64,000 bases of DNA from an uncultured Prolixibacteraceae bacterium (GCA_964525995.1 CAZGIM010000012.1:3636-67635), one strand, 5' to 3'. Positions 8,476 to 51,095 are shown, counted from the first letter of the stretch. Program-made: numbers and translations. Notes: generated by a model from the letters alone, not told the origin.

Positions 8476-9918
8476 TCAGGGTTCTATCCAAAGGACCGAG
8501 TTTCCTGTGCCGAATTCATTATCTTCCCACAGCTCATTCGCCGGATCCATGATCCATTTGCCATCAACCACAAATTTGTAGGTGTACTTCCCGGGTTGTA
8601 GACAGAGGGAAAAGGACCAGATGCCGTCGCGGTGGGCCATCCGGTATCCGGAACGACTCCATCCGTTGAAATTTCCGGAGACGCATATTTCGCGGGCTTC
8701 CGAAAATCCTTTAAGGGTAAATGTGTGGTTCGGTTTCACCGCCAGGAATGAATTGGTGAAGTTGCCTGAACCGATAGTACTGGGATTGGTGGGATCAATC
8801 ATCCATGTTCCGTCCACAATATACTTATACTCATAATTTCCCGGGCCGAGCACGTACGGGAGTTCCCATCCGTTCCTGATGCGGGTCATAAACAGTTCTT
8901 CCTGGTTCCAGCCATTAAAATTACCCGACAGAATAATTTTTTCGGCATCCTGATAACCGTTCAGCCTAAAAATCATTGTATCCCCGATACTCATGTAGGA
9001 GTTCACGTTCCCGCGGCCGTCCGGTCGGTTTACTTTACAGGCAGGATCATTGATCCAGTTGTTATCAACGATGAACTTATAGGCATGGGTACCTTCACGG
9101 ATATAGGCCGACAGCACCCAGGCCCCCCGGAAAGGGATCATGTTCAATTCATTGGTCCTCCAGTTGTTAAAACTGCCTGCAACCACTACATTCCGGGCAG
9201 TGGAATGGCCCTTCAGCACAAATCTGTAATTGTAACAAAAGAACACGGAGTTAAAATTTCCGTAGGTATCATTTTCGGTAAGTTTGTTATAGGGATCGGT
9301 ACTCCATTTTCCGTCAACAATATATTTGTAGGTGTATTTTCCCGGGGCAAGCCGAAGTGTCACGCTCCAACCCGAATCGGATTTTTGCATCGGGGTCTGC
9401 ATGGTGCTCCAGTTATTGAAGGATCCTGAAAGATAGATGCTTCGGGCATTTTGCCTTCCCGGTAAAAAAAACCGGATCCGGTTGTTGCCGGCCTGGATGA
9501 CCGAATTAAAAGTCAACCGGTTGATTCCGTAAGGTTGGGATTCTCTGAGGACGGAAGCCGCTATCTTTATCATGATATCGTCAACCAGGATGACCTCATT
9601 CTGGTCATATTGCTGTCCGGCAGTAAGGGTCGATTTTACCAGTTCATATCGGGTTGTTCCCGTTTTTCTGATAGTCCAGACGACCCCCCTGCTGACCAGG
9701 CTTGTTTTTCCAGAGAAGGCGCCGGCAATCAGTGCACTGTCGAGGTCGAAAATAGTCGATACCTCTTTTAACTGCGAAGCGCTCCACTGTTTATCGATGG
9801 TAAAGATCAGCTTTCCGTCATCAAGGCGGCAGACCCTGGCAGGGTCGTACTGCGCACGGAGTCCGGGACTAAGGATCACCGTCAAAACCATGATAAATAA
9901 TATCCGCACCTTGCTCAT
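8476..9918 (-). CDS. Secreted protein with four tandem CBM48/AMPK-beta glycogen-binding-type domains
   Basis: Signal peptide (LTVILSPGLRAQ). Four repeats of G(S/N)FN(N/G)W...W...L..G.Y.YK(Y/F)(I/V)VD..W..DP.N. Its start overlaps the stop of the upstream protease gene by 4 bp. Confidence 0.7.
   Translation of the reverse strand: MSKVRILFIMVLTVILSPGLRAQYDPARVCRLDDGKLIFTIDKQWSASQLKEVSTIFDLDSALIAGAFSGKTSLVSRGVVWTIRKTGTTRYELVKSTLTAGQQYDQNEVILVDDIMIKIAASVLRESQPYGINRLTFNSVIQAGNNRIRFFLPGRQNARSIYLSGSFNNWSTMQTPMQKSDSGWSVTLRLAPGKYTYKYIVDGKWSTDPYNKLTENDTYGNFNSVFFCYNYRFVLKGHSTARNVVVAGSFNNWRTNELNMIPFRGAWVLSAYIREGTHAYKFIVDNNWINDPACKVNRPDGRGNVNSYMSIGDTMIFRLNGYQDAEKIILSGNFNGWNQEELFMTRIRNGWELPYVLGPGNYEYKYIVDGTWMIDPTNPSTIGSGNFTNSFLAVKPNHTFTLKGFSEAREICVSGNFNGWSRSGYRMAHRDGIWSFSLCLQPGKYTYKFVVDGKWIMDPANELWEDNEFGTGNSVLWIEP
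8479..9480 (-). repeat. 4 x ~83-aa CBM48-like domain repeats within CDS 8476..9918
   Basis: GSFNNWSTMQ..YTYKYIVDGKWSTDPYN / GSFNNWRTNE..HAYKFIVDNNWINDPA / GNFNGWNQEE..YEYKYIVDGTWMIDPTN / GNFNGWSRSG..YTYKFVVDGKWIMDPAN. Confidence 0.7.
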
Positions 9919-10928
9919 TTCGGTTGTTCCTTGTTAAAACAAATTCCTATTTCCTTCTTGACCAGATTAAAGGAGAAAGTGCCTTTAATAAAAAAATCGA
10001 AACCCAGCATACCGTCAATCTGGGTTCCGTAAAAGTCCGACATCGAAGAAAGATCGGTCAGGATGGTCTCCATCGGACTGATCTTCCGGTTGCCGACGGT
10101 AAAATCGTTCAGTATCCCGTACAGAACCTCCTTTTCTCCGGAACCCACGCCGCGCAGGCTCGACCTGCGTGTAATGGTCACCGAATTCATTACCTTTTTC
10201 GATACCGTGAGATTAATTACATTCGATTCAGCTCCTGTATCAAGACAGAAATAGAGCGGGCGTCCGGCGATGTTCGCAGTCATGAACATGATATTCCCAT
10301 GGCGCTCCATTTTCTGAATCTGATCGAATTTCATCACCTGACTGTTAGCGGTCAACCGGTTGCCATTCCGGTCGGTCCGGTAAATCTGAAGTTCGTTTCC
10401 TCCTGCATTGAGCACAATTTCATAATCCTTGAGGATAGCCATGCCCAGAAGTCCTAAAATCTTCACTCCCCTTCGGTTTTCCAGATGACCCAGTGGCGCG
10501 ATATCGGTCATGATCCCGTTGATGGTTATTCCCGAGAACTGAAGTCGGCCGATCCTTGTCTTTTCAATCTTTCCGGCTGTTCCGGTGATGCCACCGGCCT
10601 CCCTTGATACGGTGGTGGCATAATTCCGGAAATAGGTTTTATTGAGAACCAGTTCCTCCGACCCTGTATCGAGGATCAGATTACCTGTGATCTGGTCGAT
10701 GACTCCTTCAACCAGCAAGAGCCTTCCCGCCCGTTTCAAGGGGATCGAAACACCTAATAGAATTCCTGAGGGGTCATACACAGGCGAACCTCTCACCGAA
10801 AGCATCGAAATCATCAGTCCCGATCGTAGGTTCACCCCTGGCAGGGCAACAATATCAGGTCGCAGCCCAAGATTCAGGGCTAAAAGAAGGAATATTATCA
10901 GAAACCCGAATCTAAGTTTCCTGACCAT
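9915..10928 (-). CDS. Two-lobed retropepsin-like aspartic protease (two Asp_protease_2-type domains in one chain), signal-anchored
   Basis: Two catalytic-type motifs, LILDTGSEELVLN and FCLDTGAESNVIN, about 145 aa apart. Hydrophobic N-terminus FGFLIIFLLLALNLGL. Start is 23 bp downstream of the giant gene's stop. Confidence 0.7.
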   Translation of the reverse strand: MVRKLRFGFLIIFLLLALNLGLRPDIVALPGVNLRSGLMISMLSVRGSPVYDPSGILLGVSIPLKRAGRLLLVEGVIDQITGNLILDTGSEELVLNKTYFRNYATTVSREAGGITGTAGKIEKTRIGRLQFSGITINGIMTDIAPLGHLENRRGVKILGLLGMAILKDYEIVLNAGGNELQIYRTDRNGNRLTANSQVMKFDQIQKMERHGNIMFMTANIAGRPLYFCLDTGAESNVINLTVSKKVMNSVTITRRSSLRGVGSGEKEVLYGILNDFTVGNRKISPMETILTDLSSMSDFYGTQIDGMLGFDFFIKGTFSFNLVKKEIGICFNKEQPK

Positions 10929-10951: not shown

Positions 10952-13900
10952 CTATTTTTCTTCGTTCAGAATGATCAGTTTCTTGATAATCCTGGTCTGA
11001 CCCCGCTGGAGGATCAACTGATACAATCCGGCCGGCGGGTTTCCCAATTCGATTGTCAGGGTCCTGGTTCCCTGAAACTCCGATTGTTTTACAATTTGTT
11101 TCAGGTGCCCGAGATTATCGGCCAGCCAGATATCGAGGGGCTCCCCGGAACCGGTATTATTCCATTCAACAGTGATCCGGTTGTCGGCCGGATTGGGATA
11201 AATTTTAACTCCTGTGTCATCCTGAGTCCCAATTCCCACCGGATAAATAACAACGACATTGGAGGGGTCGGATACACATCCGAACGGACTGGCAATCACG
11301 AAATAATGTCCGGGTATGTATGCCACATATTGCTGAGCTGTGGCGCCGGGGATGGGCTGATTGTCGCGGTACCACTGGTTTCCTTCAGGTGCACTGGAAA
11401 CCAGGGTGTCGGGGTCAATTACCGTTACGATGGGGGCTTCAGGATATGGATGTACCGAAATATGCAGTACCGGCGAGTAAGGCCCGTTTCCGCAGGTGTT
11501 GATCCCGAAAACGGAGATATTTCCCGACTGGGCATTTTCGCCAAAGCTAACTGTTATGATATTGGTGTTGGCCCCTCCGGTTATGACGGCTCCTGCCGGC
11601 ACAGCCCAGTCATATCCGATGGCATCCGGTATCAGGGCAACCGAATAGATCACTCCCGTCAGCGGCTTACAGATCAGGGTGTCGCCTGCAATCGCACTGG
11701 GTGTTCCGGGAATAGACCGCACCAGTACCGCCATTGATGAAAGCTGCGAGTTACAGCCTGCCGGTGTGTTATAGGTCACCGTGACTGTCTGCGCGCCTGG
11801 CGCCGTCCAGTAGATCTGAATACTCCGGGTCCCTTGTCCCCCGACAATAATTCCCCCCGAAGTAACGGTCCAAAGGTAGTTCACCATGCCCTGCTCGGTC
11901 AGATAGGTATAATTTCCTGATGTCATACAGGGATTGTTATTACCTGTGATGGTCGGAACCGGAACCGCATTGACGGTTACAGGCAGATTGGTGGGAATGG
12001 CAGCGGTACATCCGTGGGCATCGGTATAATTGACCGAAACTCCCTGTACTCCGGCGGTATTCCAATTCACGGTGATCATGTTGGTTCCGGCCCCGGAGAC
12101 GATCACACCGCCAGCCGTAACACTCCATTGGTAGTTGATCATACCGCCTTCGGTTGAATATACAACCCCCATGGTTCCCGCACACAGTGAAGTCTGTCCC
12201 GAAATAATGGGTACCGGCTGGGAATAGACTGTGACCGTATGAGTGGATGGAGTGGCCGCCGTACAACCGTTGGAATTGGTATAGTTAACCGTTACCGTTT
12301 TTGGTCCGGCAGTGGTCCACTGAACCTGGATGGCATTGCTTCCGCTTCCCGAAAGGATGGTTCCTCCGGCCGACACCGTCCATTGGTACCCCGTCATCCC
12401 GGTCTCCGTGGTATGATTGGTGGTCCCTCCTAAACATGATAGGCTGTTTCCTGTTATAGTGGGGACAGGCAAAGCATTGACTGTAACAGTTTTCGATGTC
12501 GGTTGACCGGCGGAACAACCATTACTGTTGGTGTAATTCACTGTGACACTCTGTGTTCCGGCGGTAATCCAGGTTACGGTGATAATGTTGGTACCTGCCC
12601 CGGCTGTAATGGTTCCTCCGGGTGAAATGTTCCATATATAATTCAAAAACCCGGGATCGGTGCTATATGCAACACCCGTCGTTCCGGCACAGACCGAAGA
12701 TATCCCAATGATTGTGGGATTCGGGGAGGTTTGGACGACCACCGATTTCAGCGTGGGTGCGGCAGCGGTGCAACCCAGGGCGTTGGTATAATTCACGCTG
12801 ACCCATTGGGCACCTGCCGTATTCCATGCAACGGTGATGCTGCTCGTATTGGTGGTGGTTGAGGTCAGTATTGTTCCCCCGGGTGATACATTCCATATAT
12901 AGTTGGTCATCCCCGGTTCGGTAACATAAATGTTGTTGATTGATCCGGCGCAGGCCACGGCATTTCCGGTAAGCGTCGGAACTGGGAGCGGATTAATCGT
13001 TACACCGAACTGCGTCGGCGCCGATGCCATACATCCTGCAGGATTGGTATAATTCACCGAAACCACTTGTGGGGTCAGGGTATTCCAGGTCACCGTGATG
13101 GTTCGGGTTCCGGCCCCTGAGGTTATGACTCCTCCCGACGAAACGGTCCAAAGGTAATTGGTCATTCCCGGTTCTGTAAAATAAAGATTGCCGGTTGATC
13201 CTAAACAAGCGTTACCGCTTCCGGTAATAGTCGGAACCGGCAAGTCGGAAACTGTTATGGCCTTGGAAGTAACCTGCAGCGGATAACATCCGTTAGAATC
13301 CATGTAACTCACGGTAACAGTCTTGGTACCGGCCGACGACCAGGATATAACGATAGAATGGGTTCCGGCCCCTGCAATGATGGTGCCGCCCTGACTGACC
13401 GTCCATTGGTATGAATTCATCCCCGGTTCAGTGTTACAGGTTGTGATGCCGTTAACACAAGCAACGGGGCTGTTCGTGATAGTCGGAATTGGCAATGGAT
13501 ACACTGTCACGGTCTTCTGGGAAGGCGTAAGAGCGGGACATCCGTTGAGATCGGAATAAGTAACCGTGATTGACTGTACTCCGGCTGCTACCCAGTCAAC
13601 GGTTATCGCATTGGTCCCGGCCCCTGAGGTGATGATCCCACCGGGTGTGATGGTCCAGGAATAACCGTTCATCCCTGCTTCGCAGTAATAAACGGCAGTA
13701 GTACCGTTGCATATCTGCGACAAGCCTGTAATCACCGGTACCGGTGCTGGTGCAACGACTACATTCCTGACCGTGGGCGAGGCGGCCGGACATCCTGCGG
13801 GATCGGTATAATTTACCGAAACCCATTGACTTCCCGGTACCGACCAGGTAACGGTGATCGTGGCCGTACCCAATCCTGAGGTGATGATTCCTCCCGTGGA

Positions 13901-16900
13901 GATCGACCAGAGGTAATTCTGCATACCGGGTGTAGTGGCATAAACCACACCGGCTGCTGATTGACAACTCTGTGCAGGGCCGTCAATCCAAGGGACCGGC
14001 GAGGTGGTTATAGTTACATTTTTACTGGTCGGTCCCGATGCGGTGCACCCTTTCTGATTGATATAATTAACTTCGATGGCATGATTGCCTGCACTGTACC
14101 AGATCACCGTCACCGAATTCGTTCCGGCACCGGCAATGATCACGCCTGTTGTCGAAACGCTCCAGGTATAACCGGTCATTCCTGTTTCGGTGTAATAATT
14201 CACCGGTATCAGGGTACAGCCCTGTCCTGGACCGGTTATGGTAGGAATAACCAAGTCATTAACGGTGACTGTTTTGGTCGATGGTACGGCAGTACATCCG
14301 TTTGAATTGGTATAGGAAACATATACGGTCTGAAGGCCCGTCGCGGTCCAATTGACAGTTACCGTTGGTGAATTGGCTCCAGAAACGATGGTTCCGCCCG
14401 GCGTTACATTCCATTGGTAGTTAGTCATCCCGGCCTCTGTGCTGTAAGATGCGTCAAAGGTCACACAGGCATTGGAACCTCCGTTGATCAGGGGTACGGG
14501 AAGCGGATTTACGATAATGGTTTTCACCGTCGATGAAGAGGCTGAGCATCCGTTACCGTCCTGGTAGTTGACGGTAATGCTCTGTGTGCCGGCCAATAGC
14601 CAGGAAACGGAAATTGCCGAGGTTCCCTGCCCCGATTCGATAATACCGCCGGAAGAGATATTCCAACTGTACCCGCTCATCCCCGTATCGGTCGCGAATA
14701 TATTTCCCGCAGTGCCTGGACATCCTGTCGCAGGCCCCGTAATCACCGGAACCGGGAGTTCATGGACGGTAACCGTAAGGGTAGAAGGTTGTGTGGCGGT
14801 GCACAGATCGGAATTGGTATAGTTCACTGTTACGGTCTTTATTCCCGGAGTGTTCCAGGTCACCTGCACAGTATCGCTGGTACTTGTGCCGCCGGCCGTG
14901 ATAATCCCGCCTGGTGGAACAATCCAGGTATAGTGTGTTTTTCCGGACTCGGTCCGGTAAAGATTGCCGGTTGAATTACGACAAACTGAAACAGGTCCGG
15001 TGAGTGTCGGCACAGGAAGTGGGTGAACCGTACAAAATACCGTGGCAGGGGTGAGTGCATCACATCCCGACAGGTTGATATAATTGACCTTCACCCAATG
15101 ATTCCCGGTGGTATTCCAGGCTACCGTGATCGTGTTGGTATGGTCCGATGGATTGGTAAGAATCGTCCCTCCCGGTGAGACAGACCATTCATAAAGCATC
15201 ATTCCTGCCTCGGTCGCGTAAGTATTGTCGGCTGAACCCACACATGCCGAGCCGGTTCCGGCAAGCGTCGGCACCGGCCGTACATTAACAGAAACATCGA
15301 AATTTGTTGGTATCGTTGTTGAACAGCCGTGCTGATCGGTATAGACCACTGTGACATACTGTAAACCGGCAACGCTCCATGAAACGGTGATACTGTTTGT
15401 ACCTGCTCCTCCGGTGATGGCGCCACCTGGAGAAACCGACCAGGTATAACCGGTCATCCCGGGATCGGTGGAATAGTCAAATCCCGTTCCGCCGGCACAT
15501 GCATAGCTAGGACCAGTAATGACGGGAACTGGGGCGGGATATACCAGGATGGATTTGGTGGTTGGAACAGGAGCCGAACAGTTGCTGGTATTGGTATAAT
15601 TGACCGAAACAGTATTGTTTCCCGCCTGCGTCCATTTGACAGTGATGATATGGGTTCCCAGACCCGATGTGATGATACCGCCAGGACCAACAGACCATTG
15701 ATACAATGCCATACCCGCTTCGGTTGTAAAGACTACAGTACCGTCGATACAAATGGTATCAGCACCGGTAATCGTTGGTTCGGGAGAAGGATAAACCGTG
15801 ATTTGCTTTGAGCCCGGCACTTGGGTAGGACACCCTGAAGAGCCGTTGATGTAAGTGACGGTAAGAGTATGAATCCCGACATTATTCCATTTGACACTTA
15901 CTGAATTCGTATTCGCACCCGAAATTATGGTTCCTCCTCCGGAGAGGGTCCATTCATAATTGACCATTCCCGGAGTGGTAGTATATACCGATATATTACT
16001 ATTACACATGATTTCCGGTCCTATAATTACAGGAAGCGGTAATGGAAGGACATTTATTGCCTTGATTGTCGGACCCGGGGAACTGCATCCCGCCGCATTC
16101 AGGTAATTAACTGTGATGGTTTGGGTGCCCGCGCCGATCCAGTCCACGCTGATGGCGTTTGTCCCCTGACCTCCGGTAAGAATTCCGCCTGATGTAACCG
16201 TCCAGGTGTATCCCGTCATAGCCGGTTCGGTAAAATACACGACTCCGGTGCTATTTTGACAGATCGGAGTCGTACCTGTGACAGTAGGCACGGGTGAACC
16301 CGAGACAGTAACTTGTTTTACCGTCGGATTGGCCTGCGTGCAACCGATCGGATCGGTGTAGACCACGCTGACAGTTCTGTTTCCTACGCTGTTCCATGTG
16401 ACCGTAACCGTGCGCGTATTAATAGGTCCGTCGATGGTTCCACCTGATGAAACAGACCAGTTATAGTTTTGCATCCCGGCTTCAGTAAAATAAATCTCAT
16501 GATGACCCGTGCAGGATTGTGCCGGACCGGTAATGGTAGCCACACTATTATTTTGTACCGTAACCGGTTTGGTCGAAGGAACCAGGGTGATACATCCGCT
16601 TCCATTTGTAAATACGACCGAAACAGTGTGATTACCTGCAGAAGTCCAGGCGATGGTGGCTGCATCAGCGTTTGAGCCGGAAATGATGGTGCCGCCCGGC
16701 GTCACACTCCACTGATAACCATTCATGCCCGGGGTGGTCTGAAAAACAGACTGACTACCATTGCATGCTATTGAAGGCCCCTGGATCACCGGTACGGGGG
16801 CTGGGAGCACCGTTATCGTCCTGACCGCCGGTACAGCAGGATGGCAACCTTTCAGATTGGTATAGGTTACCGACAAGGTTTTAGTACCAGAGGCAATCCA

Positions 16901-19900
16901 TGTCACCGAAATGGATTCCGTTCCCTGACCTGAATCAATGGTGCCGCCGGATCCGACATCCCAGATATAATCTGTCATTCCTGGTTCTGTCAAATAGATA
17001 TTGCCCGGCATTCCCTGGCAAGGGGCGGCCGGTCCGGTGATGACGGGGGCCGGAAGCGGATGAACCGTCACCGTGACTACAGCCGAAGCTGCAGCCTGAC
17101 ATCCGAATTCATTAGCATAATTAACCGAAACCTGCTTTGTTCCGGATCCCGTCCAGGTGACAGTGATCATATTGCTTGTCGGGGTTCCCCCGGAGGTGAC
17201 GGTTCCACCCGGTGATACGACCCACGAATAGTTGCTTTTCCCGCTTTCGGTAACATAAACATTACCGGAGGTGTTTTGACAAACCGAATCGGGACCTGAT
17301 AGAGTCGGAACCGGTCTGACATTGACAGTCACGGCAAATACAGCCGGCGTCAGAGCCTGGCAACCAGCTACACTGGTATAGTTCACACCAACCCACTGTG
17401 GTCCGGTGGCATTCCATTGAACTGTGATAGTGCTTTCGTGAAGTGAAGGATTGGTAAGGATTGTTCCGCCCGGGGATACTGTCCAGGAATAGGTACCCAT
17501 TCCGGTCTGGGTACTGTAGTTGTTGTTCACCGACCCGTTGCAAGCGGTTGTGGCACCTGAAATCACAGGATTTGACGGTCGTTCGTTGATCGAAATATTA
17601 TACTGGCTGGGCGATGCTGCGGTACAACCATATGGATCCGTATAACTGACCCTGACATACTGCAAACCGGTTGAGGTCCAGTCAACGGTTATGGTCGAAG
17701 TTCCGCCACCAGTTGAAATGGTTCCTCCTGATGAGACCGACCAGTTGTAACCTGTCATTCCCGATGCCGTTGAAAAGATACTCCCTTCCCCGCCGGAACA
17801 GGCAAAGGTAGGTCCTGTTATCACCGGTACAGGCGGGGCAAGTACCCTGATGATCTTGTCGGCATATGAAGGACATATGTAGGTGGTAGTATAGCTTACG
17901 GTCACCTTCCCGTTGCCGGCTTGGGTCCATTTCACCGATATGCTGCTGGTTCCCTGTCCCGAAGTGATAATCCCGCCGGTAACAGTCCATTGATAAAGCG
18001 CCATTCCCGATTCCGTTGAAAAGACCAAGGTCCCGTTCAAACATATGGTGTCACTTCCTGTTATGGTGGCTAAGGGCGTAGAATTTACCGTCACATTTTT
18101 CACTGTGGGGATCAGGGTAGGACACCCGAAGGTATTCAGATAGCTTACGCTTACAGTCTTCGCCCCGGAAGTATTCCAGACCACTGAAATGGAATTGCTG
18201 CCAGATCCGGAGACTATGGTTCCGCCCTCGGATAAGGTCCAGACATAATTGGTCATTCCCGCTTCGGTGCTGTAAAATACCGTAGTACCTGTACAGGCAA
18301 TGGAGGAGCCGGTGATTACCGGCTGGGGAGATGGAAAAACGGTGATGATTTTAGAGGTCGGTGTTGCTGCAATACACCCCGACGAATTTCTGTAATTCAC
18401 GGTGATGGTTTGCGTGCCTGAACTGACCCAGTCAACGCTGATAAAATAGGTTCCCTGTCCCGATGTAATGATCCCTCCCGAAGTTATGGTCCAGACATAA
18501 TCGGCCATCCCCTGCTCGGTAAAATAGATGACACCGGAACTGGACGGACAAATGGAGGTTGTGCCGGTAATGGTTGGAACAGGCGCCATATAAACCTGAA
18601 TATTTTTCTGAGTCGGCGTTGTAGCGCTACATCCGCCCGGATCGCTATATCTTACCGTTACATACTGGGCCCCTGCTGAATTCCACCTTATGGAAACGGT
18701 ACTGGAATTGGCCGGTCCGATAATAGTACCCCCCGACGAAACGGTCCAGATATATCCCGACATCCCTGTTTCGGTACTGTACACTTCGGTAAATCCCGTG
18801 CAGGAGGGATCAGGGCCGTTAATTGTGGGAATGACGGTGGATTGCACCGTGACGGTTTTAACCGTAGGCGCCAAAGCCGTACATCCGTTTGCATTGGTAT
18901 AATTGACGGTTATTTGCTGATTTCCTGTTGAATTCCAGGTGACAGATATCGAATTGGAATTGGCCGGTCCGTCTATAGTTCCGCCAGTAACCGACCAGGC
19001 ATAACCAGTCATTCCGGTCTCGGTGGTATAGATATTTCCTGAGGTGCTGACACAAGCCATGGCAGATCCCGAAATGGTGGGTACCGGCAAGGGATTAACC
19101 GTTATTTTAACCGCGTTGGTATAAAGGGTTCCGCATGAACCAGAGCTTGTCTGTGCCTGTCTGTACCAGGTTGATACGGTAAGGATTCCCGGTTGATAGG
19201 TCATTTGGGTAGCGCCAGATATCGGGGTAAAGTTCAGGTTATCGGTCGATTGTTCCCAATTGAAGAAGTAAGGTGTTACACCACCGGTTGGCATGGTTGC
19301 AGAAAGGATCAGTGGAGACTGGGTGGCACAAATCGATTGATTCGCTGATGCAGTGCCGGCTATGAACTGAGGATAAACGGTGATGTTGTAAGTGGAAACC
19401 GGCCCTGTGCAACCGTTTGCTACCGGCGTGACGGAAATGACAGCATTGATTGGCACAGACGATGCATTGGTGGCAGTAAACGATGGCACTGAAGTCCCGG
19501 ATCCGGAAACGGCAAGTCCTATTGCCGTATTGCTATTAGTCCAGGTGAAGGTAGTCCCCGCAACAGTCCCGTTCAGTTGGGTGGCAGGGACTGTCACTCC
19601 GTTACAATAAATCTGATCTGCGATAGCAACAACTGTTGGTTTGGGTTTAATCGTTACTAATACACTGGTTGAACCCGAACAGCCTTCTGTCGCTGTTTCC
19701 ATGACCGTCAGTGTAACCGTCTGATTCACTGAGGTATTATTGGTCCAGATCACATTGACGGGCGAACCAGTCGATCCACCGTTAAAAGTACCGTACCACA
19801 AGCCGGTGACCGGTGTCAGCGACCATGCGAAAGAAGATCCAGGAGCGCCGGAGGCAGAATAGGATGTGGATTCTTCGGGACAGGTCAGCAAAGATCCGCT

Positions 19901-20803
19901 AATAGATGGGGTGGGCGCAGCAATTACCGTAATATTCCGGGTGGCGCTGGTTGCAGTACACGATCCGTCCTGAACGTTCGAATAACTAACGGTGACAGAA
20001 GCAGTACCGGCGACGGTTCCCCCAAAAAGGGTTATCGAGGAGGTTCCCTGACCGGTAAACGAAACAACATTGGGCGCCGATCCGGTAACATTCCATACAT
20101 AGTTGTAGTAGTTCGTTCCGGGTGGAGGAACCGGTGCGTTCAGAATAAATGAAGCGCCGGAACATAACTGCCCTGATCCGCCGGTGATCGCGCTTCCATT
20201 GGCAGGAGGGGCAAGAACTGTAACATTTTGGACCACCGGATCAGAATAACATATCGCTGATCCCTCACCGGGTCTGGATGCCCGGAGTGTAATGGAATAG
20301 GTGCCGGGAGTGCCGGGCCAGGTAACAATGCCCATGGTTCCCGACCATACCGGTGGCGATCCTCCTGTCACTACCCAATCATAATCTTCACCCGATAAAG
20401 GGTAGGCCACCGAGTAAGGATAACTGGAATTGGTACAAACCGTGAATACCCCCAGGATCGCAGGAGTTGTCACACCTACCAGGACAGTGAGTGATGCCGG
20501 TCCGGAACCGGTTACCACGTTGATGGAACCCGTACCGGGTAATGATCCCCAGTCAACCGTTATCACGGGTGTATTGCCGATTACCGTTATCGGAGCAGCA
20601 CCTGTCGAGGTGATAGTCCAGGAGTACGGAAAGGTTCCACCCACGGCTGTATAGACATTAACGCCTGCACTGGCACAAACGCTTGCAGGCCCGTTGATGG
20701 TAACCTGAGCCGATATGCTGTTTGAGAATCCCGATAACAAAATCTGGAACGCAATAAGCATTACCAGACTGTATCCATTCAATTTACCCGTAAATGTTTT
20801 CAT
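10952..20803 (-). CDS. Giant T9SS-secreted repeat protein G1 (3283 aa): degenerate N-terminal modules, 1 B-module, 1 C-module, ~29 PKD-like A-modules, PKD-like 'GYxWxVPxGA' domain, GNQWY module, type-A T9SS CTD
   Basis: Single uninterrupted ORF with a signal peptide (ILLSGFSNSISAQ). Repeated motif C.G....Y.TE.GM..Y.W.V..GG.I..G.GT..I.V.W...G...V.V.Y....GC. C-terminus VKIYPNPADNRITVEW...KKLIILNEEK. Confidence 0.85.
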   Translation of the reverse strand: MKTFTGKLNGYSLVMLIAFQILLSGFSNSISAQVTINGPASVCASAGVNVYTAVGGTFPYSWTITSTGAAPITVIGNTPVITVDWGSLPGTGSINVVTGSGPASLTVLVGVTTPAILGVFTVCTNSSYPYSVAYPLSGEDYDWVVTGGSPPVWSGTMGIVTWPGTPGTYSITLRASRPGEGSAICYSDPVVQNVTVLAPPANGSAITGGSGQLCSGASFILNAPVPPPGTNYYNYVWNVTGSAPNVVSFTGQGTSSITLFGGTVAGTASVTVSYSNVQDGSCTATSATRNITVIAAPTPSISGSLLTCPEESTSYSASGAPGSSFAWSLTPVTGLWYGTFNGGSTGSPVNVIWTNNTSVNQTVTLTVMETATEGCSGSTSVLVTIKPKPTVVAIADQIYCNGVTVPATQLNGTVAGTTFTWTNSNTAIGLAVSGSGTSVPSFTATNASSVPINAVISVTPVANGCTGPVSTYNITVYPQFIAGTASANQSICATQSPLILSATMPTGGVTPYFFNWEQSTDNLNFTPISGATQMTYQPGILTVSTWYRQAQTSSGSCGTLYTNAVKITVNPLPVPTISGSAMACVSTSGNIYTTETGMTGYAWSVTGGTIDGPANSNSISVTWNSTGNQQITVNYTNANGCTALAPTVKTVTVQSTVIPTINGPDPSCTGFTEVYSTETGMSGYIWTVSSGGTIIGPANSSTVSIRWNSAGAQYVTVRYSDPGGCSATTPTQKNIQVYMAPVPTITGTTSICPSSSGVIYFTEQGMADYVWTITSGGIITSGQGTYFISVDWVSSGTQTITVNYRNSSGCIAATPTSKIITVFPSPQPVITGSSIACTGTTVFYSTEAGMTNYVWTLSEGGTIVSGSGSNSISVVWNTSGAKTVSVSYLNTFGCPTLIPTVKNVTVNSTPLATITGSDTICLNGTLVFSTESGMALYQWTVTGGIITSGQGTSSISVKWTQAGNGKVTVSYTTTYICPSYADKIIRVLAPPVPVITGPTFACSGGEGSIFSTASGMTGYNWSVSSGGTISTGGGTSTITVDWTSTGLQYVRVSYTDPYGCTAASPSQYNISINERPSNPVISGATTACNGSVNNNYSTQTGMGTYSWTVSPGGTILTNPSLHESTITVQWNATGPQWVGVNYTSVAGCQALTPAVFAVTVNVRPVPTLSGPDSVCQNTSGNVYVTESGKSNYSWVVSPGGTVTSGGTPTSNMITVTWTGSGTKQVSVNYANEFGCQAAASAVVTVTVHPLPAPVITGPAAPCQGMPGNIYLTEPGMTDYIWDVGSGGTIDSGQGTESISVTWIASGTKTLSVTYTNLKGCHPAVPAVRTITVLPAPVPVIQGPSIACNGSQSVFQTTPGMNGYQWSVTPGGTIISGSNADAATIAWTSAGNHTVSVVFTNGSGCITLVPSTKPVTVQNNSVATITGPAQSCTGHHEIYFTEAGMQNYNWSVSSGGTIDGPINTRTVTVTWNSVGNRTVSVVYTDPIGCTQANPTVKQVTVSGSPVPTVTGTTPICQNSTGVVYFTEPAMTGYTWTVTSGGILTGGQGTNAISVDWIGAGTQTITVNYLNAAGCSSPGPTIKAINVLPLPLPVIIGPEIMCNSNISVYTTTPGMVNYEWTLSGGGTIISGANTNSVSVKWNNVGIHTLTVTYINGSSGCPTQVPGSKQITVYPSPEPTITGADTICIDGTVVFTTEAGMALYQWSVGPGGIITSGLGTHIITVKWTQAGNNTVSVNYTNTSNCSAPVPTTKSILVYPAPVPVITGPSYACAGGTGFDYSTDPGMTGYTWSVSPGGAITGGAGTNSITVSWSVAGLQYVTVVYTDQHGCSTTIPTNFDVSVNVRPVPTLAGTGSACVGSADNTYATEAGMMLYEWSVSPGGTILTNPSDHTNTITVAWNTTGNHWVKVNYINLSGCDALTPATVFCTVHPLPVPTLTGPVSVCRNSTGNLYRTESGKTHYTWIVPPGGIITAGGTSTSDTVQVTWNTPGIKTVTVNYTNSDLCTATQPSTLTVTVHELPVPVITGPATGCPGTAGNIFATDTGMSGYSWNISSGGIIESGQGTSAISVSWLLAGTQSITVNYQDGNGCSASSSTVKTIIVNPLPVPLINGGSNACVTFDASYSTEAGMTNYQWNVTPGGTIVSGANSPTVTVNWTATGLQTVYVSYTNSNGCTAVPSTKTVTVNDLVIPTITGPGQGCTLIPVNYYTETGMTGYTWSVSTTGVIIAGAGTNSVTVIWYSAGNHAIEVNYINQKGCTASGPTSKNVTITTSPVPWIDGPAQSCQSAAGVVYATTPGMQNYLWSISTGGIITSGLGTATITVTWSVPGSQWVSVNYTDPAGCPAASPTVRNVVVAPAPVPVITGLSQICNGTTAVYYCEAGMNGYSWTITPGGIITSGAGTNAITVDWVAAGVQSITVTYSDLNGCPALTPSQKTVTVYPLPIPTITNSPVACVNGITTCNTEPGMNSYQWTVSQGGTIIAGAGTHSIVISWSSAGTKTVTVSYMDSNGCYPLQVTSKAITVSDLPVPTITGSGNACLGSTGNLYFTEPGMTNYLWTVSSGGVITSGAGTRTITVTWNTLTPQVVSVNYTNPAGCMASAPTQFGVTINPLPVPTLTGNAVACAGSINNIYVTEPGMTNYIWNVSPGGTILTSTTTNTSSITVAWNTAGAQWVSVNYTNALGCTAAAPTLKSVVVQTSPNPTIIGISSVCAGTTGVAYSTDPGFLNYIWNISPGGTITAGAGTNIITVTWITAGTQSVTVNYTNSNGCSAGQPTSKTVTVNALPVPTITGNSLSCLGGTTNHTTETGMTGYQWTVSAGGTILSGSGSNAIQVQWTTAGPKTVTVNYTNSNGCTAATPSTHTVTVYSQPVPIISGQTSLCAGTMGVVYSTEGGMINYQWSVTAGGVIVSGAGTNMITVNWNTAGVQGVSVNYTDAHGCTAAIPTNLPVTVNAVPVPTITGNNNPCMTSGNYTYLTEQGMVNYLWTVTSGGIIVGGQGTRSIQIYWTAPGAQTVTVTYNTPAGCNSQLSSMAVLVRSIPGTPSAIAGDTLICKPLTGVIYSVALIPDAIGYDWAVPAGAVITGGANTNIITVSFGENAQSGNISVFGINTCGNGPYSPVLHISVHPYPEAPIVTVIDPDTLVSSAPEGNQWYRDNQPIPGATAQQYVAYIPGHYFVIASPFGCVSDPSNVVVIYPVGIGTQDDTGVKIYPNPADNRITVEWNNTGSGEPLDIWLADNLGHLKQIVKQSEFQGTRTLTIELGNPPAGLYQLILQRGQTRIIKKLIILNEEK
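11714..19081 (-). repeat. Array of ~29 tandem ~84-aa two-cysteine PKD-like modules (A-modules) in G1
   Basis: Modules counted from the translation (aa ~575-3030). Each starts G..xxC and ends ..GC......V.V...P.P.I.G. The DNA copies are divergent, with no long identical stretches. Confidence 0.8.
19088..19642 (-). other. B-module (..C.G..VPAT...G.V.GTTF.WTNSN..IGL..SG.G..P.FTA.N....P....I.VTP.ANGC.G) followed by C-module (GG..PY.F.WE.S.D...F..I.GAT...Y.PG) in G1
   Basis: aa ~388-572 of G1. The same B-then-C junction recurs twice in G2. Confidence 0.6.
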
Positions 20804-20879: not shown

Positions 20880-23800
20880 TTACTGTTTCACGATCCTGAA
20901 AATATGTACCTCTTCACCCGACAGGATGCGGAGGATATAAATTCCCCCGGGGTAACCCCCGATTGAAACTTTAAAATCGCGACTATTGCTTAGTTTTTCT
21001 GATTGAATCCGTTCACCTCTCATGGAATAGATCTCAATCCGTGATCCTTCGTCAAGGTCGTTTCCCGAATATTCAATATTGAAAATTCCTGTTGTGGGAT
21101 TGGGGTATATCTTAAACTTCGACACCGGAATTTCTGTCAACGGAGGTTCAACGGCAGTAGGTACCGTGACCATCGTGGGCGCACTCATTCCACAATAGAT
21201 GCCATTGGTAGTTATATATCCATGTAGTGAACCTCCCTGTTCTACCGTAGTTCCCGGTAAAAAAAGAATATTCTTACCGGCGATAAACGTGGCAGCACCA
21301 CCGGAATGCACTATAAAGTAAGTACCGTAGCCGGCTACTGTGATGGTTTGTACCGCATCATAACATTCGTTCTGACCTGGTCCGATCTGGATATTCTGTA
21401 CTGTCACCACAGCCGGCGGCAATACTTTAACAGCATATATGACCGGCGCAACCGTACGACATCCCGAGGCGTTCACAACCTCCAGGCTGACATTCTGGTT
21501 TCCGGTTGCACCCCAGCTCACCTGGATTGCCTGGGTACCTGCGCCGCCAATAATGATACCTCCAGCTGATACCGACCAGTTATAGGAGATCATTCCGGCG
21601 TCAGCCGTATAAAGTACCGTACTTCCGACTGTAATTATTGAAGGTCCTGATATAACAGGTGCCGGAGTAGGTAGAACCGTTACCGTTTTTGGTGTCGGAA
21701 ATTCAGCCCTGCATCCTCCCGGAGTCGTATAATTAACCGTTAAACCTGAGAAGCCCGGAGTTTGCCATACCACCGTGATGGCGCTGGTTCCCTGTCCTCC
21801 TGTTATGATGCCCCCCGGTAAGATGGTCCATTGGTAATTGCTCATTCCCGCCTCGGTACTATACATCACAGCCGAAGAGGCACAGGGTGATGAGGGTCCC
21901 GCGATGGTGGGTACCGGAGGTGTCGACACTGAAACCGGCAATACCGTGGGAACTGCTGTCGGGCATCCCTGAACATCGCGGTAGCCAACTGCAACCGATT
22001 GGGATCCTGTTGTATTCCACCTGACGAAAACCGAATTGGTATTTTCACCCGAAAGGATGGTTCCGCCCTGGGTGACCGACCAACTGTACTGACTCATTCC
22101 GGCTTCGGTAGTATAATTGAATACACCTCCTGTACAGGGATTCAAAGAGCCGTTGATGGAAGGAACGGGCAATGGATTTACCGCTACATTTTTAACGGTT
22201 TGATTGGCCGCCTGACATCCCAGAGTATTGGTATAATTTACCGTCAGGGTTTGTGTTCCCGAAGTGATCCAAGATACCGTAACAGTTTGTGTTCCATTTC
22301 CTGCCGTGATGGTACCTCCCGAAGAGATAATCCAATTGTAGTTCGTCATGCCCGGATCGGTATAATAAACCACTCCCGAAGATCCTTCACAAACCGACGA
22401 AGGCCCTGTGATCACAGGTGCGGGCAGCGGGGAAACCGTAACCGGAAATGCGGCCGGGGTCAGTGCCTGACAACCGGTTTGAGGGTTGGCATAATTCACC
22501 ATTACCATTCTGAATCCGGGTTGGTTCCATCTCACCTGAATTGTAGCAGTGCCTATCCCCGATGTAATCGTGCCACCACTACCGACACTCCAGTTATAAA
22601 GCGACATCCCGGCTTGCGTAGCGTACGTCGCGGTCTGATCCAGACAAACCTGTGAAGACCCAGAAATCGTAGGAATCACAAGTGGATTGACATAGACGGT
22701 TTTCATCGTTGGTGTGGCGGGAGCACATCCATGTTGATTGAGATAGGTGACCGTTACTGTCTGGACTCCCGGGGTGTTCCAGGTAACTAAAATGGAATTG
22801 GTATTCTGCCCCCCGGTGATGGTACCACCGGTAGAAACCGACCAGGTATATCCCGTCATGCCCGGATCGGTGTTATAAACCATCCCTCCCACACCCGGAC
22901 AAACGTTAACCGGACCGGTCAGAAGCGGTACCGGCAATGGATATACCACCATAGCAACGGGTCCCGATGTTGCAGGATTTCCGGAGAGACAGGGAGAAGG
23001 CAGGCTCGAAGTAAGCACACAGGTCACCACATCGTTTGCTGCCGGAACATAACTGAATACAGCCTGGTTCGTTCCAACATCCGATCCGTTGACCCTCCAT
23101 TGATAAGCCGGATTCGTACCTCCGTTGACAGGATGTGCAGTAAACGTTACCAGGGTCCCGGCACAGATCATATTGGTTGAAGGGGTAATGCTTACGCTTA
23201 CCGGCGGATAATTGGAGCAGGTATCCTTCAGACATCGTACCGCCAACCCAAGCGACTTATTGTTGGGATTCCGGCCAGCTCCGGTTAGCGAGCCGGCTAA
23301 AAATCTTGTCCAGGCATTGGTGGTACTGTTCTGAGTTGAAGAATAAAAATATCCGAACTCCTTAAGGTTTCCGAAAGTGCCGTCGGTAAACCGCAAGCCG
23401 GCTCCTAAACCCGTGAATCCACTGGTGTTGACGGCCCCTGCATTGGGCGATGACCAGTGGGTGGTTCCCACTTCCTTCATCTTTCCTCCGGCAACACTTT
23501 CTCCGCCAAGATAGGAGGTCAGCACCGACCACTCTTCGTCGGTGGGTATATGCCATCCCGATGGACAGATCCCCTGAACTCCAGGTAAAGCAACATATTG
23601 CATCAATTCATTCCATTGATACAATCCGCCATAAACTGAACAATTGGATTCCAGGTCCAGGTAACAATATTTTTCAATGATCCCGTTGCTGGTCTGCTCC
23701 TGATTGCCATTGATACGTGTTCCGGCATCCAGGTTCTCCTTAAACCAGCACTGGTTGCCGATTTGCACAGTATGATAAGTTTTTCCCATATACGTGACTG

Positions 23801-26800
23801 TAGGAATGCCCTGACAGGGAACGCCATATAGGATACCCATAACAATTAGATTCGAGGTCGCCTGAGGATTGACAACACAATAAAAATTCGAAGTCACAGT
23901 ACAGACGATGGAATCATTTTCTGAAGGGACATAGGTGAAAGTTGGACTGTTGGTTCCGGCAATGATTCCATTCACCCGCCATTGGTAAACAGGATTGGTG
24001 CCCCCGTTCACCGTGGACGCAGTAAATGTTACGGCATTTCCGGTCAACACCGGATTTTGGGATACCACGATCGACGCCCCGACAACAACGGGCTGGGTTA
24101 TATTGACCGTTTTCAAGGGGCTGGAGGCGCTGCATCCGTAGCCATTGGTCACCAAGACCCGGAGCGTTCCCTGTGCCGGTCCCGGCCCCCCCCAGAAAAT
24201 GTTACAGGTTGACTGTGCCCCGCCGGAAAGGATTTGTGTACCAGAGGGTCCGGTTACCGTCCAGGAATAGGATGACATTCCGGGTTCTGTAAAATATATA
24301 TGCCCGCCGGTATTCTGACATACCAGATCGGTTGGATCAGAAAAACTTGTGATCGACGGTGTGGGCGCCGGGTGTACTGCCACCATAAGTGGTGTCGCAA
24401 CCGATGCCTGACAACCGTTTTCGTTCAGATAATTTACCGTGATGATCGGATTCCCGGGGTTCAGCCAGGTAATGGTAACTGATCGGGTTCCCTGTCCAGA
24501 GGTTATGATACCCTCGGATGTTACCGTCCAGAAATAGGAGGTCATTCCCGGTTCGGTGAAATATACATTACCTGTGGTATTCTGACATCCTGATGAAGCT
24601 CCCGTGATAACCGGTACCGGCAGGGAGTTGACTGTCATGGTGTGGGTGGTTGCTACTGCTGCGGTGCATCCGTTTGTGGTGGTGTAATTGATCCCGACCT
24701 GCTTCAGACCGGTTGTATTCCAGGTCACCGTAATAAAATCACTTTCAGCAGTTCCTCCGCCGGTCACAGTTCCATCGGGCGATACAGTCCAGGTGTAGTT
24801 ATTCTGCCCAGCCTGCGTGACAAAGGTATTACCGTCCGCTCCCTGGCAGGTTGTCGTAGGACCGCTGAGGGTCGGCACCGGCAACGAATGAACGGTCACG
24901 GAGTAAGTAGCCGGGAGCGTCGCAAGACAACCGGCAGTGTTCTGGTAATTTACGCTAACCCATTGCGAGCCCGGAGTATGCCATAACACCTCAATAGTAT
25001 TGGAATAGGCTGAAGGAGTCGTGATGATCGTACCGCCTTTTGAAATGGTCCATTGATATTGTATCATGCCCGGTTGCGTGGTGTATGTCGCCCGGGTTCC
25101 GGGACAAGTACCGGCAGTACCGGTGATGATCGGAGTGGGCGGACGGGCATTGATGGCCAGGTTGAACTGTGACGGAGTCGCGGCAGTACATCCATGTTGA
25201 TCGGTGTAGATGACAGATACCGACTGCAATCCTGCAGTATTCCAATATACAGTGACACTGTTGGTCCCCGAACCGGTAGTTATCACGCCATCGGCCGAGG
25301 CGCTCCAGATATAATCCGACATTCCGGTTGCGGTGTAAAATTCAGATCCCGGGCCTCCGGTACATCCATACTGCGGACCGCTGATCACCGGTACCGGCGG
25401 GGCATACACCGTAATATTTTTCACGGTAGGTGTTACGGCCTGACATCCTCCCATCGGATTGACATAGTTCACCGAAACTGTACCTGGTCCCGACTGGATC
25501 CATTTAACTGCGACACTATTGGTTCCCTGCCCGGATGTGATCAATCCCCCTGAACTCACCGTCCAGTCATACATCGCCATTCCGGGATCAGTTGAAAAAA
25601 CAACCGTTCCATTCAGGCACACCGTATCGGCTCCCGTAATGACCGGAAGCGGAGATTGGTAGACCTGGATCATTTTACTGCCGGGCACCAGCGTCGGACA
25701 ACCCTGGGCGTTGAGATAGGTGACGGATATGTTAAAGGTACCGACCGAGGACCACCGTATGCCAATCGTATTGGTTCCCGATCCGGAAATTATGGTTCCT
25801 CCCGCATCCAGATTCCAAATATAATTCGTCATTCCGGTAGCTGTGGAGTAATAGGTAGTCGTGCCGGTGCAAACCGGTGTTTGTCCTGAAATAACCGGTA
25901 CGGCAGCGGGTTGTACGGTAACCTGCTTTACGGCAGGCTGGGGTGCGTGACAACCCGACAGGTTGGTATAATTAACTGTCACACTCTGGGTTCCTGCTGT
26001 CGTCCAAGTGACTGCTATCGCACTGGTGCCCTGACCACCGGTGATCGTTCCACCCTGCACAATCCAGGTATATTCTGCCATTCCGGTCTCCGTAAAATAG
26101 ACCACTCCGGCGCTTCCCTGGCAGATTGATCCCAGGCCTGTAATAGTTGGCGCCGGCGAAGCATTGACGGTAACCGGTTTAACGGTTGGTATGGTCACTG
26201 TACATCCTAGGGCATCGTTGTAAATCACACCCACATTCCGGCTTCCGGCCGTGTTCCACAGCACCGTGATCTGGTTGGAACCCTGACCTGATACGATCGT
26301 TCCGCCACCCAAAGGCAAGGTCCACACATAATTGAGCATTCCGCTTTCGGTCGAATAAGTGCATGGAATCGATATACAGGCAGGATCAGGCCCGGTAATC
26401 GAAGGCACAATGGTGCTTTGTACCGAGACGGTCTTCGTTCCGGGCGCCGCGGCGACACAATTATTTTGGTCGGTATAGGTCACCGAAACGGTCTGTATCC
26501 CGGCAGTATTCCAGGTGACATTGACAGAACTGTTATTAACAGGACCCGCGATCACGCCTCCGGTCACCGACCAGTTATAACCGCTCATGCCTGTTTGAGT
26601 TGAGTAGATATTGTTGGTCGAATTGATACAAGCCGCCCCGGCTCCGGAAATTGTTGGAACAGGCAACGGATGAAGACTTATTTTCACTGCGTTGGTGTAT
26701 ACCGTTCCGCATCCATCGGAAGATATTTGTTTTTGCCGGAACCAGGTATTTACTGTAATGGGGCCTGGCTGGTACGACATCCCGGTTGATCCGGGTATAT

Positions 26801-50500: not shown

Positions 50501-51031
50501 CTTTTGGATGTTCAGGGTGTTTCCGTTATCGGAATTCCAGGTAACAACAATCTCGCCTGTTGAAAGCAAGGCGGGATAGGGAACCATACCGCTGCCGAGG
50601 ATGATACCTCCCGCGCCCCAGAGTTGCGCTCCGGTTTGGGAGATTTTATGAACTACGGCGTTCATGATTCCGGTTCCTTCATGTTGAAATCCGATGACCA
50701 GGTTGTTGGAGGCGTCGACACAGACATTAAAAACAAAAGTCGCCGATCCCGATGCCAGGTTGCTCACCAGTACGCCATCGGCTCCAAGGAGCTTATAGCC
50801 GTCGGCATCAATGAGTTGGGCCCGCATGTCGTAATTGCCGGAATTCTCGTGGTAATATGCGATCCATGTCTTTCCGTCGGATGTGGGAACCGACTGCAAA
50901 TCGGCGGTTGGCAATCCCGAAATCAGCATGTTCACATTGGTATTGGTATTCCACTGAGCTGACGCCAGGCCTGAACAGAGCAACATCAGGAGTCCTGCAA
51001 GACTCCATAAAAATGTCAATTTTGTTTTCAT
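47555..51031 (-). CDS. T9SS-secreted protein: unassigned ~480-aa N-terminal region, Big_2-like Ig domain, FN3-like domain, PKD-like domains including one G1/G2-type A-module, GNQWF module, type-A T9SS CTD
   Basis: Preferred start MKTKLTFLWSLAGLLMLLCSGLASAQ (51031). A-module: GTTSACQGGANATYTTESGMTSYTWSVSSGGSIVIGTGTNQIQVAWNTSGSQWVSVNYTGTAGC. PKD-like GY.W.VP.GA.I repeats. C-terminus IRIYPVPTSGIFTVSL...LLVATK. Confidence 0.75.
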   Translation of the reverse strand: MKTKLTFLWSLAGLLMLLCSGLASAQWNTNTNVNMLISGLPTADLQSVPTSDGKTWIAYYHENSGNYDMRAQLIDADGYKLLGADGVLVSNLASGSATFVFNVCVDASNNLVIGFQHEGTGIMNAVVHKISQTGAQLWGAGGIILGSGMVPYPALLSTGEIVVTWNSDNGNTLNIQKITNSGSLAWTAPVVVTVGTSTTTRGQLIGNLAGKFTMVYQKMGYGVSTTLYAQMFNPNGTAVYAPLQICNQTTSAARYYSIAADGDVTYVGYYSSNGFRFNSFLQRIEPGGTIPWGMNGSAFNTNVNTYDDYQGFTSINLSATSNYVWSVCNFSDYNQTQYGVYVQKYLKTTGARQFTDNAKVVYAIGPNSYQHAGKVALVSDNPMFLFYDANDKIYATRLDANGNFVWTGNQVELSSTSAPPGTPKMRFGFTPDGPNRCAGIWTENRTGSYMGYAQGISVGGLIGLVVTTQGGAPPTITTSGGTLQVVATVFPASANQNVTWSLVSGTGNATISTAGLVTATGNGTVYAKAVSVQDLTVKDSLMITISGQIIVNPVVVTNAASNILLTSATLNGSVTANLYPTTVTFDWGLNTSYGNSLAANPPTVTGYSPVAVTANLSGLTSNITYHYRCVGVSTAGTFYGADKTFTPGCPTIAAAGPITGSANVCNGATGKTYTVAPITNATGYTWSVPAGATIVSGQNTTSIVVNFGTSSGNVAVYGTNFCSTGAPSTLPVTVGPPPVPTISGTTSACQGGANATYTTESGMTSYTWSVSSGGSIVIGTGTNQIQVAWNTSGSQWVSVNYTGTAGCMAASPTTFSVTVEPLPSAAGTITGTAAVCGGTTGVVFSVAPVTNAISYVWTLPVGATITGGYNTNAITVSFAGNASSGVITVQGNNLCGSGPASPSFAVTVTPLPSDPGAIAGPDQVCEYASGIIYSINPIPEVTTYQWTVPAGAFIVNGANTNAITVDFGPTATSGNVTVYGSNSCGDGPVATLAVSLNPIPPAPVITLSGPVLSSNATDGNQWFFNGSLIPGATGQNYTVTAIGWYWDVVNINGCSSDTSNNIYITLPGMDEPTDQRIRIYPVPTSGIFTVSLAGQVDETCEIEVRDARGITVYRQTIGQSVPKRDIQIDITGVSPGIYFVTIRTSQEHFVRPLLVATK

Positions 51032-51095
51032 TGTTTTGGGTTTTGGGATTACAAAATATTTACCGGCCCCGTCACACGTCAGCAAATCCTCCGGG

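Follow-up and report, generated by a model that had tools for sequence, protein, structure and literature searches.

In this study we describe two adjacent giant genes, here called G1 and G2, within a stretch of 64,000 nucleotides (nt) from the genome of an uncultured Prolixibacteraceae bacterium (GCA_964525995.1, CAZGIM010000012.1:3636-67635). We refer to this whole stretch as the window, and positions are counted from its first nucleotide. Most of both genes is made up of immunoglobulin (Ig)-like modules of about 84 amino acids (aa) that belong to the Pfam family PKD_6 (PF19408). With a probability of about 0.8, we believe that G1 and G2 are tandem genes for giant secreted surface fibres that grew by the old copying of whole runs of PKD_6 modules. 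In both genes ordered blocks of distinct modules have been duplicated; these duplications are old, the order of the modules has been retained by vertical descent, and the modules evolve under purifying selection.

Recurrence of module blocks in G1 and G2

Open reading frame (ORF) calling and translation gave proteins of 3283 aa (G1) and 3729 aa (G2), and G2 is a paralogue of G1 that lies on the same strand, 76 nt upstream of it. Pfam recognized 29 stretches of PKD_6 above the gathering score in G1 (E 1.9e-250) and 26 in G2. To cut the proteins into modules we used a hidden Markov model (HMM) built from the window sequence itself, which yielded 34 modules in G1 and 27 in G2, named below by their first residue. 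The modules have two conserved Cys residues each and are rich in Ser and Thr. Ten recognizable subtypes (s1 to s10) occur in ordered runs, which we call cassettes, and other modules, designated B and C, form leaders ahead of them. The two genes, their cassettes and their leaders are as follows.

10952-20803 (-), G1, whole gene: signal peptide, 34 PKD_6 modules and a type-A C-terminal domain (CTD) of a type IX secretion system (T9SS) (Pfam, TIGR04183)
19088-19648 (-), G1 leader, preceding the cassettes: a B module at aa 386-478, then an Ig_7-like C module at aa 479-572
16535-18823 (-), G1 cassette 1: nine modules, s2-s10, aa 661-1423 (offset-9 diagonal, module tree)
14240-16534 (-), G1 cassette 2: nine modules, s2'-s10', aa 1424-2188 (offset-9 diagonal, DNA self-match)
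20880-32069 (-), G2, whole gene (ORF, Pfam, NCBIfam)
30960-31706 (-), G2 N-terminal partial cassette: s3'-s4'-s5', aa 122-370 (best matches, tree placement within the s3, s4 and s5 groups)
29556-30959 (-), G2 leader 1: four B modules and one C module, aa 371-838 (sequence comparison)
27789-29555 (-), G2 cassette a: s1-s7, aa 839-1427 (identity diagonal, tree, shuffles)
26652-27788 (-), G2 leader 2: three B modules and one C module, aa 1428-1806 (sequence comparison)
24354-26651 (-), G2 cassette b: s1-s9, aa 1807-2572 (59% aa identity to cassette a over s2-s7; DNA self-match at offset 2898)

The mean pairwise identity across all modules of the two proteins is 41%. When each G1 module is compared with the one nine positions further on, an unbroken run of elevated identities appears from the pair 661 and 1424 to the pair 1340 and 2106 (55, 63, 51, 61, 55, 59, 54, 49 and 53%), with a mean of 55.4% against 42-48% for every other offset. 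This nine-module step corresponds to 2.29 kb of DNA, and none of 2000 shuffles of the module order reached the observed mean (maximum 52.7%). Cassettes 1 and 2 are 56% identical in aa and 59% in nt, and a self-match is visible at the DNA level between 15334-16248 and 17635-18537 (offset 2301). The corresponding comparison in G2, at an offset of seven between modules 839 to 1349 and 1807 to 2315, gave identities of 53, 67, 69, 61, 64, 50 and 46% (mean 58.5%), again not reached in any of 2000 shuffles. Here the repeat unit is 2.9 kb (offset 968 aa), consists of three or four B modules, one C module and s1-s7, and recurs once, so that G2 has a leader ahead of each cassette whereas G1 has a single B-C leader. 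A fifth, partial copy consisting of s3-s4-s5 opens G2. Overall, cassette copies are about 57% identical, compared with about 41-45% for modules of different subtypes. Whole-protein BLASTP searches of the two proteins against themselves and each other were not suitable for delimiting blocks, as they fused into a few high-scoring segment pairs of 2000-3500 aa at 33-36% identity, and we used module matrices instead.

A maximum-likelihood tree of all 61 modules showed that each of s3 to s8 forms one group spanning G1 cassettes 1 and 2 and G2 cassettes a and b, with strong support for s5-s8. Subtype labels change only 10 times on this tree, compared with a mean of 28.5 for shuffled labels. Approximately unbiased (AU) tests rejected both clustering by gene (p 2e-70) and clustering by neighbourhood (p 8e-6), and forcing the G1 modules, or the modules of cassette 1, into a single clade costs about 150 log-likelihood units. 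Positional clustering fails for s2 between the two genes, and for s9 and s10. The second modules of the two G2 cassettes (aa 925 and 1891) are only 42-48% identical to G1_661 and G1_1424 and are sister to subtype 4 in the tree; we therefore class them as a G2-specific type closest to subtype 4 rather than as G1 subtype 2. The modules of subtype 10 do not form a clade, as G1_2106 falls with subtype 1, and the 'GP.N' motif ascribed to subtype 2 also occurs in subtype 1.

These results bear on an initial annotation of the window, in which subtypes 2-10 had been described as recurring in the same order in G1, and subtypes 1-7 as occurring twice in G2 with the second run continuing to s9. Its coordinates agree with the HMM module boundaries to about 10 nt, and its motifs for subtypes 3, 5, 6, 7 and 8 are found in the sequence. 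The order in G1 is borne out by the offset-9 diagonal, except that subtype 9 is weak (49%) and subtype 10 lacks a clade, and the order in G2 by its own diagonal, except for position 2. A block size of approximately 2.3-2.5 kb had been proposed; this fits G1 but not G2, where the unit is longer and includes the B and C modules. The proposal that expansion proceeded by duplication of multi-module blocks agrees with the module tree, in which s3-s8 cluster by position across cassettes and genes, with the AU tests and with the whole-cassette tree described below. Clustering of neighbours within a gene, the pattern that the annotation had set against its own proposal, is not what the tree shows.

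In proteins with tandem Ig domains, a low identity of neighbours probably reduces misfolding between domains. Adjacent modules of G1 and G2 are only 42-44% identical, and block duplication thus keeps the identity of neighbours low.

Age of the duplications and orthologous genes

The four cassettes of the window are roughly equidistant from each other, at 55-58% aa and 57-63% nt identity, and their synonymous sites are saturated (proportion of synonymous differences, pS, 0.70-0.80; synonymous divergence, dS, undefined in 4 of 6 comparisons). Between the window cassettes we found no tract of at least 90% identity over at least 60 nt. Because of this saturation, ratios of nonsynonymous to synonymous divergence (dN/dS) within and between subtypes are not computable from paralogous cassettes, and we used pairs of orthologues for this purpose.

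Both genes are present in three species-level genomes of the same genus (G001, G010 and G020), although those in G001 are truncated where the contig stops. The orthologues in G010 and G020, of 3282 and 3727 aa, are collinear with the window in all modules, and they are 81% and 79% identical to the window proteins with dN/dS of 0.09 and 0.15. The comparison with related genomes that the initial annotation had suggested can be extended to a more distant bin, G041 (CAYYPH010000017.1), which has the same tandem gene pair. The G1-like protein of G041 is 4047 aa long and has three nine-module cassettes, exactly one cassette more than G1. In a tree of whole cassettes (s3-s7), cassette 1 of the window and G010 grouped with the first and second cassettes of G041 (98/96), while cassette 2 of the window and G010 grouped with the third cassette of G041 and with the s3-s5 run of a 1048-aa protein from another genome, G013 (87/90). 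The duplication that separated cassettes 1 and 2 therefore predates the split from the G041 lineage, and the tree indicates that G041 later re-duplicated cassette 1 in the same nine-module register. A scan of species-level genomes showed that the cassette genes have a narrow distribution. Matches in other genera (L024 onward) were considered as cassette homologues and rejected, as their identity of 41-48% is at background level.

Some further observations were made on the orthologues. The divergence between G2 and its G010 orthologue is a mosaic, in which modules 839, 1807, 1891 and 2488 have a dS of about 0.5 and 90-95% aa identity, and modules 2315, 2401 and 3473 have a dS above 2 and 66-67% identity; G1 is more even. 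This mosaic may reflect recombination between lineages. An orthologue of the Bacteroidales T9SS protein, at 85% identity, is also found on a 156-kb contig (L022, SACF01000004.1) of a bin labelled 'Alphaproteobacteria bacterium isolate INTA.CYC.164', and it looks as if this taxonomic label, or the bin itself, is wrong.

Selection on the modules and alternative explanations

In the history that we propose, each protein combines some 35-40 Ig-like modules with a Sec signal peptide at one end and a type-A T9SS sorting domain at the other, and would be attached by its C-terminus at the outer membrane after secretion, with the N-terminus as the distal tip. An already heterogeneous run of PKD_6 modules would have been copied as a block by unequal recombination. 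The s3-s4-s5 triple, as the most widespread core, would have been extended to s1-s7 and s2-s10, and block copying would then have produced the nine-module 2.29-kb tandem in G1 and the 2.9-kb unit of B modules, C module and s1-s7 in G2. These events predate the split of the G041 lineage, and the copies have since diverged independently, under ordinary purifying selection and free of homogenisation in the window genome, which in this account is why modules resemble their positional counterparts more than their neighbours.

Several points weigh against this account. The organism is known from metagenome bins alone, and the role as a fibre is read from sequence and a structural model. In the cassette tree the inner branches are only 0.07-0.15 long, against 0.4-0.6 for the tips of G041, and the order of the duplications is thus only moderately secure. 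In G041, cassettes 1 and 2 share a tract of 411 nt that is 100% identical and in exact 2289-nt register (gene nt 3504-3914 and 5793-6203; L100/L101), covering s8 and half of s9, with flanks that are about 50% identical. This tract arose either through recent gene conversion in register or as an artefact of short-read assembly, and if it is not an artefact, conversion between cassettes can occur. Some subtype motifs are also invariant across species in 8-11 copies, examples being the motif GGT.(T/A/E)S of s8 and an insertion, ILT.P, of s7. Finally, the columns that are substituted between orthologues are slightly more alike within subtypes (correlation 0.135) than between them (0.066; permutation p about 0.0008), and this may reflect a subtype-specific constraint beyond descent.

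The last two points bear on the claim of the initial annotation that retained subtype identity argues for position-specific roles rather than a generic spacer function. According to this explanation each position would have its own ligand, partner or place in assembly, and selection would keep both the identity and the order of the subtypes. The conservation of diagnostic motifs and indels extends over two genes and three lineages, no orthologue has dropped or rearranged a module inside a cassette, orthologue lengths agree to 1-2 aa, and both the third cassette and the 411-nt tract of G041 keep the exact nine-module register. There is also a precedent in the C-zone of titin, where some positions have partner-binding surfaces (PMC10665226). 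We nevertheless consider position-specific roles unlikely, and the claim does not hold as an argument, because plain descent from a block that was already heterogeneous suffices for the retained order and predicts the same pattern of subtype identity. When the window is compared with G010, individual modules have a dN/dS of 0.03 to 0.29, the mean of which is alike for cassette subtypes 2-8 (0.108) and unassigned modules (0.099), so that all modules are under purifying selection and none specially. For the comparison of substituted columns, we replaced a per-column conservation contrast with the correlated-substitution test, because the old origin of the subtypes and the invariant core sites would explain any outcome of the former. 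The excess in that test is small and confined to columns with the same residue (0.171 vs 0.107), being absent where the residues differ, as expected from shared residue ancestry. Furthermore, the number and completeness of cassettes vary: G1 has two and G041 three, cassette a of G2 ends at s7, and s3-s5 also stands alone, while subtypes 2, 9 and 10 are already without a clear identity. A specific form of such a role would be a register code: if several chains of G1 or of G2 were bundled into a rigid multi-stranded stem like that of GhpA (see below), each subtype would pair laterally with its own kind alone, and selection would maintain subtype identity and order because they force the chains into register. 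We think this improbable; in a variant of it, the ordered subtypes could set the length of the fibre in whole-cassette steps of about nine modules. If it were true, the cassettes would be a bacterial counterpart of titin-like super-repeats with structural meaning.

The identical tract in G041 is also what would be expected if ongoing block-level gene conversion between cassettes kept counterparts similar. As an explanation for the window this is very improbable, as its cassettes have no comparable tract, are only 57-63% identical in nt with saturated synonymous sites, and differ far more from each other (55-58% between paralogous cassettes) than from their orthologues (80-85%). It is scarcely credible that the pattern is a chance resemblance of short, low-complexity Ig-like modules or an artefact of metagenome assembly. 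The modules are indeed short and rich in Thr, Ser and Gly, and the genome is a bin of 72 contigs, but shuffled orders never reached the observed diagonals and s5-s8 are strongly supported. Independent assemblies are collinear, for the complete genes in G010 and G020 and for as much of them as lies on the contig in G001, and copies at about 60% nt identity are too diverged for an assembler to collapse or duplicate. We thus retain the old duplication of heterogeneous blocks as the preferred explanation.

Predicted secretion and structure, and related proteins

Both proteins have a hydrophobic N-terminus that resembles a signal peptide when the sequence is read by eye (ending in ...SISAQ in G1 and ...GLAQ in G2), and both end in a predicted sorting domain that scored 38.4 bits (G1) and 41.3 bits (G2) with the Pfam model Por_Secre_tail (cut-off 27) and 26.3 and 36.3 with TIGR04183 (cut-off 23). 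The genome also encodes the T9SS protein SprA, in a 2417-aa frame on contig C13 (SprA_N, E 2e-165). On these signals, G1 and G2 are predicted to be T9SS type-A cargo. The only sequence match in the PDB at E <= 0.001 is GhpA (phmmer E 4.6e-44), a heptameric giant T9SS substrate of Aureispira sp. CCB-QB1 (PDB 9flp), the stem of which consists of many Ig-like repeats in series that differ slightly from one another, and which has inter-domain disulfides and O-glycans (bioRxiv 10.1101/2024.01.29.577165). An AlphaFold2 model of s3-s5 had a mean per-residue confidence (pLDDT) of 96.1 and a predicted template-modelling (TM) score of 0.78, and its best three-domain superpositions in Foldseek were fragments of the GhpA stem (TM-score 0.54-0.59). 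Based on the T9SS signals, SprA and the likeness to the GhpA stem in sequence and fold, we infer that both proteins build long, rigid fibres at the cell surface, anchored at the C-terminus with the cassettes in distal and middle positions, and that they act as a rigid, extended and probably glycosylated stalk or adhesin. Scaled from GhpA (240 nm for 5898 aa), such fibres would be roughly 130-150 nm long.

The stem repeats of GhpA are homologous to the modules of G1 and G2, with their two conserved Cys residues each and their many Ser and Thr residues. In contrast, G1 and G2 are only about 60% of the length of GhpA, have a type-A CTD, and come from a Bacteroidales bin rather than from a predator of the Saprospiria. 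In a sequence search, which is a weak test, there was no significant match to the hook region of GhpA (N-terminal hook module, residues 26-1402): the significant alignments to GhpA began only at about residue 1150 and involved repeat modules alone, and the only alignment within the hook proper (873-928) scored -0.4 bits. Among the nine flanking ORFs scanned there were no PorP-like or PorE-like genes (ghpB/C); the neighbours include an aspartyl-protease-like protein, a CBM48 protein, an FG-GAP/CTD protein and an M48 peptidase. Given the lack of a significant hook match and of PorP/PorE-like neighbours, together with the type-A CTD, we rejected the possibility that G1 and G2 are orthologues of GhpA. 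The SprB gliding adhesins of Flavobacterium and Cytophaga are likewise giant, repetitive surface filaments of Bacteroidota exported by the T9SS; Pfam and NCBIfam detected no SprB repeat and no type-B (CHU_C) CTD in G1 or G2, and the neighbours scanned included no sprF/PorP-like gene.

Downstream of G1 are genes for the 480-aa CBM48 protein (8476-9918 (-)) and the 337-aa aspartyl-protease-like protein (9915-10928 (-)). The former has four CBM48/AMPK1_CBM glycogen-binding modules, and its gene also adjoins the G1 orthologues in G010, G020 and G041, showing conserved synteny.

The remaining parts of G1 and G2 are as follows.

18824-19075 (-), G1 subtype-1 module, aa 577-660, outside the duplicated block
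11453-14239 (-), eleven more G1 modules, aa 2189-3117, without cassette periodicity
10955-11203 (-), G1 T9SS type-A CTD (Por_Secre_tail, aa 3201-3278; TIGR04183)
23226-23768 (-), Fib_succ_major (FISUMP) domain that breaks the G2 array (PF09603, E 5e-36; TIGR02145)
20883-21110 (-), G2 T9SS type-A CTD (Pfam, NCBIfam)

The G1 module at aa 577 is only 43% identical to that at 1340, and groups in the tree with G2_839 and G2_1807. The assignment of the B and C modules in the G1 leader comes from comparison with the G2 leaders and a weak Pfam match to Ig_7. The eleven G1 modules that follow cassette 2 have one-to-one orthologues in G010 and G041. Within them, modules 2273 and 2358 (13700-14239 (-), aa 2189-2441) group with G1 subtypes 2 and 3 (88/68 and 98/88), which hints at an older, decayed s2-s3 remnant of a former third cassette after cassette 2. 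In leader 1 of G2 (29851-30904 (-)) there is a young in-frame tandem duplication of 552 nt that comprises a pair of B modules (86% identity over 300 nt, repeat D15; 78% over 502 nt), and this is the sole recent repeat event across the two genes.

PKD_6 is also abundant elsewhere in the genome, with at least 145 matches in more than 20 proteins among the 150 of 185 candidates that were scored. The 21 other PKD_6 proteins of the genome match only generic modules of the C-terminal type (G1_2698, 2783, 2867 and 3038), and the cassette is therefore specific to G1 and G2 within this genome. A third protein of the window (47555-51085 (-), 1176 aa) has four generic PKD_6 modules, three of them similar to G1_3038 and of the kind found close to the CTD. 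The 1048-aa protein of G013 (L017, 5753-8896 (+)) opens with s3-s4-s5 and continues with counterparts of the G1 C-terminal modules 2698, 2783, 2867, 2952 and 3038, and the s3-s4-s5 triple could be the most ancient part, the core, of the cassette. Even larger PKD_6 proteins of 8490, 8464 and 6597 aa were found in sister species (G012:C111, G012:C2, L102-L107; G019:C51, L108). Their strongest offset is 3, and on average their modules are 51-52% identical within the proteins of 8490 and 6597 aa, and 44% identical within that of 8464 aa. In a 4108-aa protein of G024 (G024:C4, L110), the identity between adjacent modules is 74%, and some pairs have exactly the same sequence. As the other giants of the genus show a period of three or homogenisation of neighbours, the nine-module period belongs to this gene lineage rather than to the domain.

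Duplication of several domains as one block is the common mode by which domain repeats expand, often in the middle of the array, and the seven-module unit of nebulin is the textbook case (Bjorklund, Ekman & Elofsson 2006, PMC1553488). G1 and G2 resemble these proteins in having a peak at a fixed multi-domain offset (nine in G1), a duplication within the array, and positional counterparts that are closer than neighbours. They differ in being prokaryotic, intron-free PKD_6 genes with only two or three copies of the block and no known periodic partner. In the C-zone of titin, domains at comparable positions of the super-repeat are also more alike, which has been read as recursive duplication of super-repeats, but only two positions have conserved surface clusters and most show little position-specific surface conservation (PMC10665226). 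Titin differs from G1 and G2 in that its period fits the repeat of the thick filament. G1 and G2 are therefore a new bacterial example of the repeat expansion already known from the super-repeats of nebulin and titin, and leave the general view of repeat evolution unchanged. The locus offers a clean and datable bacterial case of how super-repeats grow in a presumed giant surface fibre of Ig-like modules, in which blocks of nine modules were copied, long kept in register and, in a relative, copied once more. In addition, it links the giant PKD_6 proteins of Bacteroidales bins, a large and unannotated family, to the stem of GhpA, its sole solved relative, and thereby provides a structural frame for considering their function.

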